A stretch of 6,874 bases of DNA from a virus. Its lineage: Duplodnaviria; Heunggongvirae; Uroviricota; Caudoviricetes. Both the position numbers and the translations under genes were made by a program. A model generated the notes under the pieces. The model did not search any database. It was not told the DNA's origin and saw nothing but the letters and a program-made list of their open reading frames with translations. The stretch lies in IMG/VR virus record IMGVR_UViG_2778261214_000002. One strand, written 5' to 3'. Numbering within the stretch: position 1 is the stretch's first letter; every line of letters starts with the position of its first letter. Below, one piece after another: positions 1-6,874 of the stretch.

Positions 1-651
1 ATGGCGATCGCCGCTGCTGCGCGTGATGGCGAACGATGGCAACGGCTGGCCCTGTGCGTTCACGCCACCACCGGGCATGATGAATAACAGATTACCGCTT
101 TTTACCGTAGTGATTGCGCCCAGCATTTCCGCCATGCGCGTAAGGAAGGACATGTCACTTTCTTCGGTCTGGTCGGCGTGGTCGATTTCGATATCCATCA
201 GCATTTCGCTGATTTGCGGTTTCAGACCGTACCGATGAGCGATGGCGGATACCACACGCTCAACGGTCACATCATGCCAGGACACCTCACGTTTAACGTT
301 AAATTCATCCCGGAAATCTGCGCTTCTGGCTGAAACAGTCAGCCTGTCCGGCGGTCCTTCGTGTGCGATTTCATCAACAATGTAAGACCCTTTTTCTGTC
401 AGCGGTTCGCCTTTCCAGCCAATGAGAACCGTCAGGCGCGCGCCCCGTGGCGGTAGCTGCAACTGACCATCCGCATCATCCAGCGTGATGGTGAGCTGGT
501 CTGCCTCAAATCCCCGGTTGTCGGTCAGCGACAGGCTCATCAGGCGCTCTGCCACGCCGGACAGCGTTTTACCCTCCGCGAGAATATCAAAATCCGGCAT
601 TTTTACGGGGTCTGTGCCCTGGCTGAGCAATTGCATGGTGGTGTCGGTCAT
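1..651 (-). CDS. P2 gpD-like tail protein (late control gene D family), N-terminal 217 codons; 3' end runs off the window
   Basis: Hand translation of the reverse strand from ATG (complement of 649-651) to position 1 is open with no stop: MTDTTMQLLSQGTDPVKMPDFDILAEGKTLSGVAERLMSLSLTDNRGFEADQLTITLDDADGQLQLPPRGARLTVLIGWKG...SADFRDEF...SWHDVTVERVVSAI...ESDMSFLTRMAEML...ITRSSGDRH. Motifs (TDNRGFEADQL, IGWKG, SADFR, SWHD, FLTR, ITRSxGDRH) match my recollection of P2 gpD. SD-like GGGAGGG lies 5-11 nt upstream of the ATG on the - strand (complement of 657-663). Absent from the supplied ORF track because it has no in-window stop. Start could alternatively be the internal ATG at 600. Confidence 0.8.
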   Translation of the reverse strand, partial: MTDTTMQLLSQGTDPVKMPDFDILAEGKTLSGVAERLMSLSLTDNRGFEADQLTITLDDADGQLQLPPRGARLTVLIGWKGEPLTEKGSYIVDEIAHEGPPDRLTVSARSADFRDEFNVKREVSWHDVTVERVVSAIAHRYGLKPQISEMLMDIEIDHADQTEESDMSFLTRMAEMLGAITTVKSGNLLFIMPGGGVNAQGQPLPSFAITRSSGDRH

Positions 652-808
652 CTGCTCCCTCCCTGTGCGGCATGGTCGCATGTGCGTGCGGAGGGGGTTA
701 CTGCTTTTTGTTGTCGCCGGGTCGGGAGAACGGCGCAGGGGTGAGATTACGCGCGTGGTGGGTGATGATTGTTGCCGAATCATTTAACGGATACAAGGGG
801 CTGAAGCT
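652..808. promoter_or_regulatory. Divergent intergenic region between the gpD-like gene (-) and the sheath gene (+); presumed to hold both promoters
   Basis: 157 bp non-coding gap between two divergently oriented start codons. No good sigma70 -35/-10 pair is visible by eye, which fits activator-dependent phage late promoters. Direct repeat TGTGCG at 664-669 and 681-686. Promoter positions not resolved. Confidence 0.35.
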
Positions 809-1993
809 ATGAGTGAAACTCGTTTTCATGGTGCCCGTGTTACGGAAAATACCGACCTGGTAACAGCGATTAACGATGTTGATTCCAGCGTTATCGGTAT
901 CGTGGCAACGGCGGATGATGCGGACGCGGAGCTGTTCCCGCTGAACAAGCCCACACTGCTGACCCGCGTCAATGACGTGCTGGGAAAATGCGGAACAACG
1001 GGGACGCTTTATCGTGCGCTTAAGGCCATCGCAGACCAGGTGAGCACAAAGGTGATCGTCGTTCGCGTGGCTGAACACAAAGAAGAAGACGGAAAGACGC
1101 AGGATCAACTGGTTATCGGTGGTTCTGAGGATGACGGCAGCTATACGGGGATGTATGCGCTGCTTGTTGCAGAGCAGGATGAAAGCATCGGATACCGTCC
1201 GCGTATTCTGGCCGCGCCGGAGCTGGACACGGAGGCGGTAACAAAATCCCTGTGCGTGATTGCGGGTAAACTGCGCGCGTTTGTGTATGCCACATGTCAT
1301 GGTTGTAACACGATGGCTGAGGAGATTACCTACCGCCAGAAATTCAACGAACGTGAGGTGATGCTCTTATGGCCTGACTTCATCGCCTACAACCCGAAAA
1401 GTGGCAAAAACGAAACGTTCCCCGCGCCTGCTTATGCGTGCGGCCTTCGTGCGTACATTGACCATGAGCAGGGCTGGCACAAATCGCTGTCCAACGTTCC
1501 GGTTAAAAATGTGCTGGGAATGTCCAGGCATGTGTTCTGGTCGTTGCAGGCCGAAGACAGTGATGCCAACAGCCTCAATAACAAAGAAATCACGACCATT
1601 ATTCGTCGCAACGGGTTCCGCTTCTGGGGCAACCGCACACCGGAAACGAACGCCTACATCTTTGAGGTGTATACCCGAACCGCACAGGTGCTGGCTGATT
1701 CAATTGCGGAAGCGCAGTTTGAAACCATCGACAGTCCACTGACGCCTGCGAACGTGAAGGATGTTATCAGTGCCATCAGGGCAAAACTGGATTCACTGGT
1801 TACTGCCGGGAAACTGATTGGCGCGGAGTGCTGGTATGACGTGGTGGATAACGGCACCACGGATTTACGTCAGGGGCGTGTGCGTATTCGCTACAAATAT
1901 ACGCCCGTTCCCCCGCTGGAAGACATGGAGCTTTACCAGACGTTTACTGATGAATTCTTTGGTCCCGCATTTGCGGTGCTGGGAGGTGCCTGA
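809..1993 (+). CDS. Contractile tail sheath protein (P2 gpFI-like)
   Basis: 394-aa ORF. N-terminus and internal motifs (FPLNKP, LRAF, YRQ, WPDF, GWHKSLSNV, IRRNGFRFWGNRT, NYTRTAQV, YTPVPPLE) match recalled P2 FI sheath. SD-like AAGGGG 8-9 nt upstream of ATG 809. Stop TGA 1991-1993 overlaps the next start (TGATG). Confidence 0.95.
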   Translation: MSETRFHGARVTENTDLVTAINDVDSSVIGIVATADDADAELFPLNKPTLLTRVNDVLGKCGTTGTLYRALKAIADQVSTKVIVVRVAEHKEEDGKTQDQLVIGGSEDDGSYTGMYALLVAEQDESIGYRPRILAAPELDTEAVTKSLCVIAGKLRAFVYATCHGCNTMAEEITYRQKFNEREVMLLWPDFIAYNPKSGKNETFPAPAYACGLRAYIDHEQGWHKSLSNVPVKNVLGMSRHVFWSLQAEDSDANSLNNKEITTIIRRNGFRFWGNRTPETNAYIFEVYTRTAQVLADSIAEAQFETIDSPLTPANVKDVISAIRAKLDSLVTAGKLIGAECWYDVVDNGTTDLRQGRVRIRYKYTPVPPLEDMELYQTFTDEFFGPAFAVLGGA

Positions 1994-2505
1994 TGGCTGT
2001 ACCAAAACATCTTCGCTTTTTTACGTTGTTTGTGGATGGTGAAAACGAAGTGGGTAAAGTGACATCCGTCACGCCGCCCAAACTGACGCGCAAAACCGAC
2101 AGTTATCGTGGTGGTGGCATGATGGGGGCGGTAAGTATTGATCTCGGTCTGGACGACTCCGCGCTTGATGCGAGCTTTGTCATGGGTGGAGCTGTTCGTG
2201 CACTGTTCCTTAAGTATGGCGGCACGATTGACGGCACGCTGCTGCGTTTTGCGGGTGAATATTACACCGATGCAGAAAGCGATCTGTATGAAATCGAGAT
2301 GCGCGGGCGTGTGACGGAAATTGATATGGGGGAGGCCAAACAGGGCGAAGCCACATCACACACATACGCTGTCAAAAACACCTACTACAAGCTGAGTGTT
2401 AACGATCGCCCGCTGTGGGAAATCGACCTGTTGAACCACATCTACCGGAAGGACGGCAAGGACATTGTGCCTGACCGCATTCGCTCCGCGCTTGGGCTTG
2501 GCTGA
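1993..2505 (+). CDS. Tail tube protein (P2 gpFII-like)
   Basis: 170-aa ORF directly after and 1 nt overlapping the sheath gene (translational coupling). GGGAGG SD at 1981-1986. Sheath-then-tube order and size are typical of P2-like myoviruses. Confidence 0.93.
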   Translation: MAVPKHLRFFTLFVDGENEVGKVTSVTPPKLTRKTDSYRGGGMMGAVSIDLGLDDSALDASFVMGGAVRALFLKYGGTIDGTLLRFAGEYYTDAESDLYEIEMRGRVTEIDMGEAKQGEATSHTYAVKNTYYKLSVNDRPLWEIDLLNHIYRKDGKDIVPDRIRSALGLG

Positions 2506-2560
2506 TAAGTAATATGCAGGCGGCGCAGTGCGTCGCCTCTGACTGAAAAGGAGACAACTG

Positions 2561-2935
2561 ATGAAAGACATCGATACTGAAACCCGGAATAACACCGTAG
2601 CGGATGATGTGACGGCAGGTGAGGATATGGCTGTCGAACGTGGTGTAAAACTTTCCCGGCCAATTGAGCGTGGTGCCGAAAAAATCACATATGTGGAAAT
2701 CACCGGGGCTATTGAGCAGGCGGGATCCCTGCGTGGTCTGTCGCTGTCTGATGTGCTGAATCTGAAAGCGGATACCATGTTCACGCTGTTGCCTCGCGTG
2801 ACTTCGCCACGACTGGATGAAGTGATGATTAAAAAAATGTCGTCACGCGATTTTATTCAGTTGTGCGCTGTGGCTGTAAATTTTATGAGCGAGCCAGACT
2901 CTGGCGCGAAGAGCGTGCAGGAGACGGCAGCGTAA
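2561..2935 (+). CDS. Tail assembly chaperone (P2 gpE-like)
   Basis: 124-aa ORF with strong SD AAAAGGAGA (2546-2554) before ATG 2561. Position between tube and tape measure genes, acidic small protein, and an overlapping -1 frame extension are the hallmarks of the gpE/gpE+E' pair (analogous to lambda G/GT). Confidence 0.85.
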   Translation: MKDIDTETRNNTVADDVTAGEDMAVERGVKLSRPIERGAEKITYVEITGAIEQAGSLRGLSLSDVLNLKADTMFTLLPRVTSPRLDEVMIKKMSSRDFIQLCAVAVNFMSEPDSGAKSVQETAA

Positions 2936-3099
2936 TCACCCTGGTGTGCTTTGAGCACATCGAAGATCTGGTGGCGGATATTGCCGCCATTTTTAACTGG
3001 TCGCCCGCCGAAATCTTCATGATGACGCCCGGCGAAGTGGTTAGCTGGCGTGAGCGGGCGGCACTTCGCAGCGGGAATGCAGATAATGAAGACTCTTGA
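2561..3099 (+). CDS. gpE+E' fusion produced by predicted programmed -1 ribosomal frameshift (shift somewhere in 2833-2935, E' frame continues to TGA 3097-3099)
   Basis: The -1 frame relative to E is open from 2833 (after TAA 2830-2832) to 3099 and has no SD-preceded start of its own (first start-like codon is GTG 2863 with no SD). Candidate slip sites: A AAT TTT at 2878-2884 (X XXY YYZ in E frame) and the A7 run 2831-2837. Fusion would be about 179 aa. Confidence 0.55.
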
Positions 3100-3340
3100 C
3101 ATCCGGGTCGCTTTCAGCGCCGTTGACAGGCTGACCCGGCCTGCCGAAAACGCCCGCCGCCTGATGGGGCAGTTTGGTGACTCCATCCAGCGAACGCAGG
3201 GGGCGATCAAAAATCTCGAGCGTCAGGCGCGTTCATTTGAGCGCGCCCGGGACGCTGTCAGTAAAGCGGATGCGGGTATCGTGAAAGCACGACGCCAGCT
3301 TAACGCCCTTAATCCGTTAGCGCGTAACGCGAGCGCGTGA
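3086..3340 (+). CDS. Tail tape measure protein, N-terminal fragment (frame-shifted relative to the main body)
   Basis: Frame-2 ORF MKTLDIRVAFSAVDRLTRPAENARRLMGQFGDSIQRTQGAIKNLERQ... (85 aa from ATG 3086; alternative starts ATG 3077, GTG 3050), stop TGA 3338-3340. Coiled-coil-like N-terminus typical of tape measure proteins. Overlaps the E' stop. Confidence 0.6.
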   Translation: MKTLDIRVAFSAVDRLTRPAENARRLMGQFGDSIQRTQGAIKNLERQARSFERARDAVSKADAGIVKARRQLNALNPLARNASA

Positions 3341-3440
3341 GCGGTATTCGCGCGCGCAGGAAACAGCGGGAAAACTGAAAACAGGTGGTGCGCTGGCAAT
3401 TGGTGCGGCAGCGGCGGGCGGCTATGCTGCCGGGCGTTTT

Positions 3441-5657
3441 TTGCAGCCTGCGATCGGGTTCGGGAAAGAGATGTCCCGCGTTCAGGCACTGACGCGAATC
3501 GACAAAAACAGCCCGCAGTTTAAGGCGCTGCGTGAGCAGGCGTTAAAACTGGGCTCTGAAACGCAGTTCACCGCAGGCGATGCCGCCAGTGGGCAGGCAT
3601 TTCTTGCAATGGCTGGCTTCACACCGCAGGCCATTCAGGCTGCGCTCCCTGGCGTACTGAGCATGGCAACGGCTGGCGGTATGGACCTCGGTGAGACGGC
3701 GGATATTGGCTCAAATATCCTGACGCAGTTCGGTCTTTCTGCTGACCAGATGGACCGGGTCGGCGACACACTCACCGCAGCGTTTACCCGTACCAACACT
3801 GACCTTCGCGCACTGGGTGAAACCATGAAATATGCAGGTCCGGTGGCGGGTAAGCTGGGAATATCGCTGGAGCAGGCCGCAGCGATGGCGGGCGTGCTGG
3901 CGAATATGGGTATCAGAGGGAGTGATGCCGGGACGGCAATGCGTGCCAGCCTGGCTCGTCTGGCATCACCGCCAAAGGCGGCAGCAGAGGCGCTGAAAGA
4001 GCTTGGCGTGTCTGTCTCGGATGCCGGGGGCAAAATGCGTCCGATGGAGGATGTGCTGGCTGACCTTTATAAAGCTACCCGCAAATACGGGGAAGTTGAC
4101 CGGGTATCGTTCTTTAAGGACATTGCCGGAGAAGAGGCTTTCACATCATTTATGGCCCTCGTTGATGCGGCAGGTGACGGCTCCTTACCCAAACTGAGAA
4201 AAGAACTTGAAGGTGCGCGCGGTGAGGCTGAACGCACGGCAAAGGTTATGGCCAACAACCTTGACGGCGATCTGAAATCACTCAGCAGTGCATGGGAAGG
4301 GTTGCGCATCCGCATTGCAGATCTGATTGACGGTCCGCTGCGTTCTGTCACGCAGTGGCTCACGCGTGTGGTATCAAAGGTGACGGCGCTGGCGCAGGCC
4401 CATCCCGCACTGACGCGCCAGCTACTGATTGCAGGCGGTGCACTGCTGGCAATGACTGCAACGGTTGGCTCGTTGTCGCTGGCTATTGGTGTGCTTGCTG
4501 GCCCGCTGGCAAAACTGCGTCTTGGTTTTTCCCTCCTGACCGGATCAATGAATGCTGTCAGGGTTCTGCCAGCACTATGGGGAATGGTGACGGGTTCCGT
4601 TTCTTTACTGGGAGGCGCTATCGGGGCGTTGTTCAGTCCGGTTGGTCTTATCGTGGCTGCGCTTGCCGGAGCTGCCGTTCTTATCTGGAAATACTGGGAT
4701 CCCATCAGGGCATTTTTTGCCGGGGTGTTCAGCGGGATTATGGAAAGGCTGACCCCGTTGCGCGAAACCTTTGAACGGTTTGGTCCTGTTTTTGACGCAA
4801 TCGGGAGTGGGATCAGCCAGGTGTTTAACTGGTTTAAATCGCTGCTGTCACCGATGGAGTCCAGCAAGGAAACTCTGGATAAATGTACCAGTGCTGGCGA
4901 GATATTCGGTAACGTTCTTGGCGGTGCGTTACAACTTGTTCTGACACCTGCAAAAATGTTGCTGGATACGCTGGCGTGGATACTTGAAAAGCTTGGTGTG
5001 CTTCCGGATGAAGCGGAAAGGGCGCGCAAGAAAATCGAAGACGCACAGCGTGCGGCCATTCTTCAGGACAAGGTTGCCTTGCTTCAGGGGGACCTGGCGA
5101 AAATCAATCCGCCGAAGCCTGTGGAAAATGGCAATGGCACCGGAGGTGATAACCCCAAAGACAATAAACCGCTCACAGACAGCAATACCGGTACGCTGCG
5201 CAGACTCAGCAAAATTGCTGATAACACAGGTAAGCTGGTTGAGGAGACGAAAAAACGCATTGGCCCCGGCGATATTGTCTTTAAAAACCTGCCCCGAGCA
5301 CTTGCTGTTCGTGGGGAGTGGCAGGAGCGGAAGATTGCGCAGGTCAGTAAGCCTGCCCCCGCAATTAATATCACACCCGTGGTCCCGGCTCCGCTGCCTC
5401 CGGCGCTGGTCCCTGTTGTTGCGGCCAGCTCCCGCCCGGTGGCGGAGGCTATACGATCTCCAGTGGCATCAGTTCCTGTAACTTCCCGTAACCGGGAGCC
5501 TGTTGCCTCCGGATTTGGTGGTGAAATTCATGTTCATCTGCATAACGTTGTTACGCAGAATCCCCGCGAACTGGCGAAACTGGTCGGTGAAATGGTCAGG
5601 GCAGAAATGGAACGGCGCGCCCGTGCCGGGCGTGGCAGTTTTTACGATAAAGATTGA
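3441..5657 (+). CDS. Tail tape measure protein, main body (P2 gpT-like); frame is open from 3321
   Basis: Frame-0 reading is open from 3321 (after TAG 3318-3320) to TGA 5655-5657. First in-frame start-like codons are TTG 3441 and ATG 3471. Ala/Gly-rich alpha-helical protein with a central hydrophobic stretch (LLIAGGALLAMTATVGSLSLAIGVLAGPLA...) and a Pro/Val-rich C-terminus, located between gpE and gpU: characteristic tape measure. Confidence 0.9.
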   Translation: MQPAIGFGKEMSRVQALTRIDKNSPQFKALREQALKLGSETQFTAGDAASGQAFLAMAGFTPQAIQAALPGVLSMATAGGMDLGETADIGSNILTQFGLSADQMDRVGDTLTAAFTRTNTDLRALGETMKYAGPVAGKLGISLEQAAAMAGVLANMGIRGSDAGTAMRASLARLASPPKAAAEALKELGVSVSDAGGKMRPMEDVLADLYKATRKYGEVDRVSFFKDIAGEEAFTSFMALVDAAGDGSLPKLRKELEGARGEAERTAKVMANNLDGDLKSLSSAWEGLRIRIADLIDGPLRSVTQWLTRVVSKVTALAQAHPALTRQLLIAGGALLAMTATVGSLSLAIGVLAGPLAKLRLGFSLLTGSMNAVRVLPALWGMVTGSVSLLGGAIGALFSPVGLIVAALAGAAVLIWKYWDPIRAFFAGVFSGIMERLTPLRETFERFGPVFDAIGSGISQVFNWFKSLLSPMESSKETLDKCTSAGEIFGNVLGGALQLVLTPAKMLLDTLAWILEKLGVLPDEAERARKKIEDAQRAAILQDKVALLQGDLAKINPPKPVENGNGTGGDNPKDNKPLTDSNTGTLRRLSKIADNTGKLVEETKKRIGPGDIVFKNLPRALAVRGEWQERKIAQVSKPAPAINITPVVPAPLPPALVPVVAASSRPVAEAIRSPVASVPVTSRNREPVASGFGGEIHVHLHNVVTQNPRELAKLVGEMVRAEMERRARAGRGSFYDKD

Positions 5658-5663
5658 GGAGTC

Positions 5664-6158
5664 ATGGCCATGATGATGATCTACGGCATGTTTGTTTTTG
5701 AGCTGCGCACGCTGCCGCATCAGCAGTTACAGCAAAACAAAAGCTGGCGGCATGTGAAAAATGAACGCGTTAACCGTTCAGCAAGCTGGCAGTATATCGG
5801 TGCAGGTGATGATCGCATCGTTCTTTCTGGTGTGCTTTATCCTGAAATTACAGGTGGCGAAGTGTCGCTGTCGCTGCTGACCACGCAGGCGTATACAGGA
5901 CGACCCTGGCCTTTGATTGATGGCGTCGGGCAGATTTACGGCATGTATGTGCTGACTGAAACGAATACGACCCGTTCCGAGTTTGATCGCTACGGTAAGG
6001 CGAAAAAGATAGAATTTTCACTGACTCTTGAACGCTGTGATGAGGATTTGCGGGAGCGCCTGCAATCCTCATCGTTCAGTGATATGCTGTCCGGCTTCAA
6101 AGATAAGGTCACATCATCCCTTAACAGCGCGGCCAGCTCCGTTAAAGGGCTGTTTTGA
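5664..6158 (+). CDS. Tail protein (P2 gpU-like)
   Basis: 164-aa ORF. N-terminus MMMIYGMFVFELRTLP... resembles recalled P2 gpU (MMMVLGLFVF...). GAGGAG SD at 5656-5661 overlaps the tape measure stop; true start may be ATG 5670 (8-nt spacer) rather than 5664. Confidence 0.88.
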   Translation: MAMMMIYGMFVFELRTLPHQQLQQNKSWRHVKNERVNRSASWQYIGAGDDRIVLSGVLYPEITGGEVSLSLLTTQAYTGRPWPLIDGVGQIYGMYVLTETNTTRSEFDRYGKAKKIEFSLTLERCDEDLRERLQSSSFSDMLSGFKDKVTSSLNSAASSVKGLF

Positions 6159-6165
6159 TTAACGC

Positions 6166-6202
6166 AAAACCGCTAATGGTCAGATTAGCGGTTTTTTATT
6201 TT
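6166..6202. terminator. Intrinsic (rho-independent) terminator between convergent gpU and invertase genes
   Basis: Perfect 12-bp inverted repeat AAAACCGCTAAT (6166-6177) / ATTAGCGGTTTT (6184-6195) with 6-nt loop, followed by TTATTTT on the + strand. On the - strand the stem is followed by a weaker U tract. Sits 8 nt after the gpU stop and directly abuts the invertase stop (6196-6198). Confidence 0.75.
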
Positions 6203-6786
6203 CCCTGAGTCTGCCCGGTTGTTTCTTCAGCCTGTATATCGCCTACAGGGTGATAACGATAAATCGTCGATATACCGATGTCGTAAATGATCGCCAGTTG
6301 TTTCCTGTCATGGCCGTTTTTAATCAGCCTTTCTATTTGCTCATGTTGTTCTTTTGTCAACTTCGGGCGACGTCCGCCAATGCGTCCCTGTGCTCGTGCT
6401 GCTGCCAGCCCGGCCAGTGTACGCTCTACAATTAATTCACGTTCCATTTCTGCTAAAGCTCCCATGACGTGAAAAAAGAAACGCCCCATGGGTGTTGATG
6501 TGTCAATGCTGTCCGTCAGGCTACGGAAATTAACACCTTTTTCCCGCAATTCCTCAATAAGCGTGATCAGGTGTTTCATACTCCTGCCCAGCCTGTCCAG
6601 CTTCCAGACAACCAGCGTATCTCCTTCTGATAGCGTTCTGAGCAGTTTTTTCAATCCCGGTCTGGCTGATTTCGTTCCGCTGATTTTATCTTCAAAAATC
6701 AGTTCACATCCTGCGCACTCCAGCGCGTTACGCTGCAATTCCGTGTTCTGGTCATTTGTTGATACGCGAACATAACCAATAAGCAT
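6196..6786 (-). CDS. Site-specific DNA invertase, serine recombinase (Hin/Gin/Cin/Pin family)
   Basis: Reverse-strand ORF MLIGYVRVSTNDQNT...LVVWKLDRLGRSMKHL...GVNFRSLTDSIDTSTPMGRFFFHVMGALAEMERELIVERT...GRIGGRRPKLT... is near-identical in motif content to recalled Gin/Pin/Cin/Hin invertases (catalytic Ser in YVRVSTNDQ, C-terminal HTH). Start chosen at ATG 6786 (SD AGGGGG 6 nt upstream on the - strand); the ORF track extends to ATG 6792. Confidence 0.95.
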   Translation of the reverse strand: MLIGYVRVSTNDQNTELQRNALECAGCELIFEDKISGTKSARPGLKKLLRTLSEGDTLVVWKLDRLGRSMKHLITLIEELREKGVNFRSLTDSIDTSTPMGRFFFHVMGALAEMERELIVERTLAGLAAARAQGRIGGRRPKLTKEQHEQIERLIKNGHDRKQLAIIYDIGISTIYRYHPVGDIQAEETTGQTQGK

Positions 6787-6841
6787 GAGCATCCCCCTGA
6801 ATAAAAACCGGAGATGATGCCAGTTACCCGTTATCTCTGCA

Positions 6842-6867
6842 TTTTCACAAACGTTGGTTTGGGAGAA
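6842..6867. other. Candidate invertase crossover site (hix/gix/cix/pix-like 26-bp imperfect dyad with 2-bp core)
   Basis: TTTTCACAAACG-TT-GGTTTGGGAGAA. The reverse complement of the right half (TTCTCCCAAACC) matches the left half at 9 of 12 positions. Half-sites fit the recalled family pattern TTnTCnnAAACC with a 2-bp central core. Lies about 55 bp upstream of the invertase start, at the window edge. Confidence 0.55.
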
Positions 6868-6874
6868 GCCAGAT

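Follow-up and report, generated by a model that had tools for sequence, protein, structure and literature searches.

We analyzed a stretch of viral DNA of 6,874 bp (hereafter, the window), which corresponds to the whole of the draft contig LPXZ01000173.1 (assembly GCA_001571835.1) and is a piece of a P2-like prophage of the P88 type (genus Xuanwuvirus), ordinary in kind. Its tail genes, from the sheath gene FI to U, are inverted relative to the late control gene D when compared with the arrangement of phage P2. We consider it very probable that this FI-U block was inverted once, in the ancestor of a branch of P2-like phages, that it has been vertically inherited since then without flipping today, and that the activator box of the pF promoter was carried along. 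In this scenario, the segment running from pF through FI, FII, E/E', T, and U would have been inverted in the common ancestor of Xuanwuvirus, Reipivirus, Reginaelenavirus, Senquatrovirus, and unnamed prophages of Enterobacterales, with gpD and ogr retaining their original orientation.

The inverted FI-U block across P2-like phages

The record of P2 has V, W, J, I, H, and G, then pF-FI-FII-E-E'-T-U-D-ogr, all on a single strand, and the order that a first-pass annotation of the window had given was thus right. This colinear order FI-FII-E-E'-T-U-D is not found in the window, where U is followed by a terminator and an invertase gene. As the same annotation had noticed, a gpD-like gene lies upstream of the sheath gene and diverges from it, which we confirmed by the open reading frames (ORFs), their translation, and Pfam. 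This ORF (651..1, minus strand, the N-terminal 217 codons of a gene for the late control D protein or baseplate hub that is cut by the contig end) is a true gpD. The fragment is 53.5% identical to gpD of P2 (E = 3e-72) and 99.5% identical to gp51 of P88, and its match to the Pfam profile Phage_GPD, 26 bits, becomes 64 bits, above the threshold, in the full-length D of P88. A second gpD past U was looked for and found neither in the window nor in 55 related loci with the inverted layout (see below).

The window holds a P2-like (Peduoviridae) contractile tail module, with orthologs of FI, FII, E/E', T, U, and D all present (35-54% identity to P2, E-values from 1e-13 to 1e-118). It also resembles the F operon of P2 in its E/E' frameshift arrangement, in a putative Ogr-type box upstream of FI, and in having ogr after D, the latter being observed in its relatives. 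It differs from that operon in the inversion of FI-U relative to both D-ogr (with ogr again seen in the relatives) and the V-W-J-I-H-G operon, and in that FI-U stops at its own terminator, without run-on into D and ogr.

At the nucleotide level, 99% of the length of the window aligns at 94-97% identity with P88, P884B11, Shae_phiSM, and related phages (94.3% for P88 and 96.9% for the Xuanwuvirus P884B11). Its relatives in Xuanwuvirus are P88, P884B11, the Citrobacter phage Shae_phiSM/PhiSM, and the phages 520873, 503458, and 500465-2. Phage genera are delimited, in the convention of the International Committee on Taxonomy of Viruses, at about 70% nucleotide identity over the full genome. The high identity over the length of the contig and the same gene layout place the window in this P88-like genus. 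Prophages that are 95-98% identical to the window and cover at least 80% of it were present in 1,349 of 5,426 complete Escherichia coli genomes. In Shae_phiSM (L002, OR565851), genes between 2294 and 4745 seem to have shifted or mistaken product names: gpD is called "ogr/Delta-like zinc finger family protein", and the name "late control gene D protein" has been given to the sheath gene.

Read in the orientation of the window, P88 has D (minus strand), FI, FII, E, E', T, and U (plus strand), the invertase (minus strand), an invertible fiber segment, then H, I, J, W, V, S, R, the lysis genes, X, L, M, N, and O (minus strand), and finally P and Q (plus strand). The same layout is annotated in P88, FAM21845, EC02, and eight further E. 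coli loci. A homolog of ogr lies directly after D in P88, at about 1357..1091 on the minus strand (L001, NC_026014); it is not annotated there and matches the ogr-like ORF of Kp4872-3 (tblastn, E = 3e-22). In E. coli copies of the prophage, ogr (PF04606) has been annotated after gpD by the pipeline of the National Center for Biotechnology Information. The phages SEN5 (Senquatrovirus), Kp4845-1 (Reipivirus), and Kp4872-3 (Reginaelenavirus) have V, W, J, and I (with H and G) on one strand, U, T, E, FII, and FI on the other, and then D-ogr on the first. These phages, together with SEN4 of Senquatrovirus, are like the window in having the inverted FI-U between the fiber genes and D-ogr, as well as a single box in the D/FI spacer. 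They are unlike it in their sheaths (55-71% identical), their lack of an invertase or invertible fiber segment, and their hosts, Salmonella and Klebsiella. The canonical order is kept in P2, Gegevirus, Tigrvirus, and Citexvirus.

We then surveyed one genome per bacterial species by means of a sheath alignment; 80 loci were retained, and the proteins of P88 and P2 were placed on them by tblastn. Wherever the sheath was 55% or more identical to that of the window (55 loci), the layout was without exception inverted, i.e., ogr and D on the minus strand, FI to U on the plus strand, then the invertase, when there is one, and I, J, and V on the minus strand. The canonical order was found in 23 of the 23 classifiable loci whose sheath is at most 51% identical to that of the window. 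Hosts of the inverted loci include Salmonella, Citrobacter, Edwardsiella, Enterobacter, Kosakonia, Erwinia, Pantoea, and Symbiopectobacterium, as well as Klebsiella, Raoultella, Brenneria, Serratia, Pectobacterium, Providencia, Xenorhabdus, and Hafnia.

The structural proteins of P88 are 26-65% identical to their P2 counterparts (49% for D and 46% for FI). Within the inverted group, the identities of gpD and of FI to those of P88 co-vary closely (Spearman correlation of 0.91, n = 49). Unrooted neighbor-joining trees of 86 FI and 78 D sequences are each split cleanly between inverted and canonical loci, and the inverted layout maps to a single branch in either tree. Since the divergence of gpD and that of FI co-vary and both trees are split by layout, we favor a single old inversion. 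A distinct sub-lineage or a past inversion had been proposed from the window alone, and both parts of this proposal agree with a layout shared by four genera and all the related loci.

These data also bear on the possibility of a mosaic junction, where FI-U would have been imported from an unrelated contractile-tail phage and would have landed in reverse beside the resident gpD. Mosaicism is common in P2-like phages, above all near the fiber genes, and a local exchange of alleles is visible inside the block, since E is 73% identical between the window and P88 when its neighbors are 97-99% identical. Yet an imported block accounts poorly for the tight co-variation of gpD and FI or for the same clean split in both trees. 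Furthermore, FI, FII, T, U, and D of P88 are similarly distant from those of P2 (33-49%), and the spacing between the box and FI equals that of P2 pF. We thus regard a mosaic junction as very unlikely.

The canonical order is presumably ancestral, because it is more widespread and reaches Pseudomonas, Burkholderia, and Acinetobacter. Two points weigh against the single old inversion as we describe it: the 80 loci, being the top matches to aligned sheaths of the inverted lineage, form a biased sample, and the polarity rests on the taxonomic spread of the canonical order, the trees being unrooted.

One might also suspect that the divergent junction between gpD and FI is a short-read misjoin. The window is a draft contig of 6.9 kb, and a contig of a sister assembly breaks at position 3310, as expected from a region that is hard to assemble. 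However, the same junction, with an identical spacer of 157 bp, is present in finished phage genomes, and the junction is found in more than 1,000 complete E. coli chromosomes. This leaves practically no room for an artifact at the junction.

The first-pass annotation had implied that the element is unusual. This did not hold: the layout is standard in a large lineage of phages that have already been sequenced, including RefSeq genomes. The inverted layout is therefore already known, in the sense that it is deposited and annotated in RefSeq phages, and it is a widespread lineage trait of P88-like phages. In the literature searched, we found no explicit description of the FI-U inversion; the P88 paper mentions only "similar functional modules" and phylogenetic distinctness. 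We considered the xenorhabdicin cluster xnp1 as a described example and rejected it: in a 2026 paper its sheath gene adjoins the variable fiber region, which suggests the canonical order. Because of this position of the xnp1 sheath gene, the Xenorhabdus loci with the inverted layout are probably prophages other than xnp1.

The value of the layout as a discovery is small, since it occurs in about a quarter of the complete E. coli genomes. A comparative note on the inversion could still be useful, given that we found no explicit published statement of it. The inversion is a clean shared character by which one branch of Peduoviridae, comprising four named genera and many enterobacterial prophages, can be told from P2, 186, Fels-2, phiCTX, and the Burkholderia-type phages. 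Programs that call or annotate prophages and tailocins by synteny should not presume the order of P2.

The invertase and its crossover site

The inverted block ends past U at a terminator that abuts a convergent invertase, as had been described from the sequence. A hairpin at 6166..6195, with a 12-bp stem followed by a T run, lies between the two genes, directly against the stop codon of the invertase, and folds on both strands (-15.6 and -15.2 kcal/mol, z-scores of -3.5 and -3.9), as a two-way intrinsic terminator would. Transcription of FI-U would stop there, where it would meet that of the fiber operon and the invertase. The gene on the other side (6792..6196, minus strand) encodes a serine DNA invertase of the Hin/Gin/Cin/Pin type, with a Resolvase catalytic domain (PF00239, E = 5e-52) and a C-terminal HTH_7 domain (PF02796, E = 3e-12). 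It is only 86% identical to the invertase of P88, and past position 6785 the window diverges from the sequence of that phage.

The first-pass annotation had suspected a fiber segment past the invertase, and this is where we found a 26-bp crossover site, TTCTCCCAAACCAACGTTTGTGAAAA (6842..6867, minus strand), which would be the near boundary of the invertible tail-fiber segment and is present in a single copy in the window. Its half sites are of the AAACC..GGTTT type and resemble the hix/gix consensus. In E. coli EC02, a close relative, the homologous site (L092, 13085-13102) is paired with an inverted copy that lies 1.8 kb from it, within a fiber ORF (14915-14932). A search for the site in P88 and FAM21845 returned no match, because their sequences past the invertase differ. 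The contig ends 7 nt past the crossover site, a break that probably results from short-read assembly of a culture in which both orientations of the fiber segment were present.

This arrangement is like that of the Gin, Cin, Pin, and Hin systems (the G segment of Mu, the C segment of P1, the P segment of e14), in that a serine invertase lies beside the segment and the partner site, in EC02, is in a fiber gene. With the partner inside a fiber gene, inversion would swap the C-termini of the fibers. It differs from these systems in that the near crossover site is alone on the contig and in that the invertase would have had no part in the FI-U inversion. An invertible tail-fiber system is known in P2-like prophages of enteropathogenic E. 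coli E2348/69 (PMC4272514).

The proximity of the invertase raises the question of an active switch, in which it would flip FI-U itself and the window would have caught one of two orientations. In favor of this, the block directly adjoins the invertase gene, immediately past which there is a crossover site. Still, a search of the window found no inverted repeat or crossover-like site in 652-808 or elsewhere at the flanks of FI-U, and the partner of the crossover site is in a fiber gene, on the far side of the invertase. The block has the same orientation in the 55 related loci, in about 1,350 E. coli genomes, and in all the phage genomes examined. In addition, the invertase is absent from 47 of the 55 inverted loci; the other eight always have it at the end of the fiber operon, as do the canonical loci that carry one. 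This distribution indicates that the invertase is unrelated to the inversion of FI-U. Since the block lacks flanking repeats and crossover-like sites, we reject an inversion made by the invertase and find a present-day switch hardly credible. According to the single old inversion that we favor, the invertase would flip only the tail-fiber segment past the contig end. As a side observation, the E. coli locus L098 has a glycosyltransferase-like gene in the place of the invertase.

A candidate two-way late promoter between gpD and FI

The inversion parts gpD from U, which implies that gpD needs its own promoter, a further difference from the F operon of P2. In most canonical loci, U and D overlap by 4 nt (ATGA or GTGA). 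This overlap is lost in the window, where gpD has its own Shine-Dalgarno sequence, GGGAGGGAG, and the translational coupling of gpD to U would be lost with it. Early on, FI-U was proposed to be an independent transcription unit with its promoter region at 652-808. This is consistent with what we found in the divergent gpD/FI spacer (652..808, 157 bp), a putative two-way late promoter region holding a conserved candidate box of the Ogr type at the distance from FI that is seen for P2 pF. P88 and FAM21845 have a spacer of identical length and sequence, and the 157 bp and the box of the window are shared in Xuanwuvirus.

The candidate box, TGTCGCCGGGTCGGGAGA, was identified by sequence comparison, spans 712..729 (center at 720.5), and has the form TGT-N12-AGA. 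Its center is 88.5 nt from the ATG of FI, to be compared with 82.5 nt for pF and 95.5 nt for pO in P2, and 69.5 nt from the ATG of gpD, to be compared with 78.5 nt between the pP box and the ATG of P in P2. These values fit the Ogr/Delta type of box, which is of the TGT-N12-ACA type and is expected about 55 nt upstream of the late start site and about 82 nt from the ATG of FI. A single TGT-N12-A(C/G)A box is found 78.5-88.5 nt (mostly 82.5 nt) from the ATG of FI in 48 of the 55 inverted loci and in the window, and these 48 loci agree in the half-sites and vary in the N12. The box is a perfect TGT-N12-ACA in SEN5 and Kp4872-3, and the annotated pF and pO boxes of P2 are TGT-N12-CCA. A strict search for TGT-N12-ACA had given no match in the spacer and a single one in gpD (362-379), at chance level; the 3' half-site was relaxed only after the P2 boxes were found to end in CCA. 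A scan for the sigma-70 consensus gave nothing in 652-808, as expected because late promoters are activator-dependent.

Aligning the 48 unique spacers on the box revealed a conserved GATTAT/GAATAT on the FI side, centered 46 nt from the center of the box. The gpD side has CATGATTTCACGCGCGCG, which reads TGAAATCAT on the strand of gpD and has its hexamer centered at 46 nt too. For comparison, the spacer between the divergent genes O and P of P88 (154 bp) has the same type of box, CTTTTGTTGT-N11-AGAAC, and a similar CGCGCGCG-plus-hexamer element on the side of P, and is a close structural twin of the D/FI spacer of that phage. In the P2 record, pP and pO are assigned a single activator site, whose distance to either start site is 55.5 nt.

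These observations suggest how the rearranged genes may be expressed. The inversion would have carried pF along, leaving the dyad-symmetric Ogr box back-to-back with gpD. Two divergent late promoters would thus depend on a single box, as pP and pO do in P2, with start sites predicted near 776 for FI-U (rightward) and near 665 for gpD-ogr (leftward). Judging from the sequences, we put the chances at about even that the box at 712-729 drives both FI-U and gpD-ogr and that the old inversion thereby created a second control region like pP/pO. The likeness to pP/pO consists of one dyad-type box between divergent late genes, a spacer of about 155-175 bp, and -10-like elements about 46 nt away on each side. 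The differences are that the start sites of pP and pO were mapped experimentally (NC_001895) and those of the D/FI spacer are predicted, and that the leader of gpD would be about 14 nt long, compared with 23 nt for P.

Several observations weigh against a two-way promoter. The box of the window ends in AGA rather than ACA, its leftward -10 element is weak (GACCAT, minus strand), and the predicted gpD leader is short. The pattern we used finds no box in 7 of the 55 loci. Finally, in a few loci with insertions the box stays with FI rather than with gpD. In L024, L035, L038, L048, and L065, over 100 nt separate the called start of gpD from the box, which stays with FI; in these loci gpD may be on another promoter or its start may be miscalled.

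If the box does work in both directions, then neither the translational coupling of U and D nor the seven-gene F operon of P2 would be indispensable, and an Ogr site would work both ways wherever a -10 element sits 46 nt off on either side. The lineage is a natural experiment, where gpD does without co-transcription or translational coupling with U and where an Ogr box probably works in both directions.

Other genes of the window and observations on related prophages

The genes were mapped with six-frame ORFs, translation, Pfam, and BLASTP against the proteins of P2. All genes of the inverted block are on the plus strand. The tail sheath gene FI (809..1993; Pfam Phage_sheath_1, Gp18_domIII_N, and Phage_sheath_1C) encodes a protein that is 45% identical to FI of P2 and 98% to gp49 of P88. 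It is followed by the tail tube gene FII (1993..2505; Phage_tube, E = 2e-45; 42% identical to that of P2) and by the tail assembly chaperone gene E (2561..2935; 35% identical to that of P2, with a weak match to Phage_TAC_7). The E' frame (2833..3099; Phage_P2_GpE, E = 2e-12) is at -1 relative to E. Next come the tape measure gene T (3086..5657; PhageMin_Tail, E = 9e-59), interrupted at 3319/3320, and U (5664..6158; Phage_P2_GpU, E = 6e-39; 46% identical to that of P2), the last gene of the block. A scan of the window with Rfam matched no RNA family.

By analogy with P2, E' would be reached by frameshifting from E. The slippery heptamer of P2, T_TTT_TTG, aligns with TTTTTTG in P88, L011, L097, and L098. 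At the same site (about 2881-2887) the sequence is TTTTATG in the window, Shae_phiSM, FAM21845, EC02, L096, and L099-L103, hence in most of the E. coli copies examined. In both its E allele and this site, the window is like Shae_phiSM and unlike P88. A run of seven A (A7) is found at 2834-2840, about 43 nt upstream of the degenerate heptamer. In the TTTTATG alleles, the -1 frame is open upstream to the A7 run; in the TTTTTTG alleles of P88, L011, L097, and L098, a TGA in the -1 frame lies between the two. An exception is L012, where the -1 frame is open to a run of eight A. These alleles suggest that the shift site producing E+E' may have moved from the heptamer to the A7 run 43 nt upstream.

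At the interruption of T (3319/3320), 236 bp found in P88 and Shae_phiSM are missing (blastn), a gap that shifts the frame and, when compared with Xuanwuvirus phages, occurs in the window alone. It leaves an N-terminal fragment of 84 codons (3086-3340), the rest being open from 3441, and with the missing segment put back, reading continues in the downstream frame as far as the stop codon at 5657. The extra 236 bp are carried by the best 10 of the 1,345 matching complete E. coli records, which match the window in two pieces, and the contig LPTW01000072.1 of the sister assembly is identical to the window up to 3310, where it ends. Given these records and the end of the sister contig, the gap may be an assembly artifact. 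It is either a real deletion, giving a defective tail, or a misjoin.

A tail module with such a gap might be taken for an R-type tailocin, i.e., a tail cluster without a head that was domesticated by the host. The contig has only tail genes, T is frameshifted, and E. coli remnants (L097, L098, and L101) lack head or baseplate genes. On the other hand, a broken tape measure would itself disable a tailocin, and the nearest relatives (94-98% identity) are complete, with head genes. P88 and FAM21845 both encode them, and FAM21845 has portal, terminase, capsid, lysis, and replication genes. P88 is inducible and forms plaques (PMC5285337), and PhiSM is an active phage (PMC6456863). A tailocin is thus improbable, to a high degree, and a contig of a P88-type prophage remains our preferred reading.

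The remnant copies of E. coli in L097, L098, and L101 retain hok-ogr-D together with FI-U and have lost baseplate, head, or fiber genes through insertion sequences and deletions. As such copies decay, the tail block seems to persist the longest. A toxin gene of the hok/gef family lies just past ogr at the end of the prophage, in P88 and in E. coli copies (L001, 747-887; L091, 18916-19056; L096, 3010-3150). The locus L012 (NZ_JBQPOM010000071.1, labeled Vagococcus sp. WN89Y) is a contig of 226 kb with a P88-like prophage whose sheath is 97-98% identical to that of the window; as Vagococcus belongs to Firmicutes, this is probably enterobacterial contamination or a mislabeled assembly. Regarding integration, several copies of the prophage adjoin serS and others adjoin ytfP or flk.

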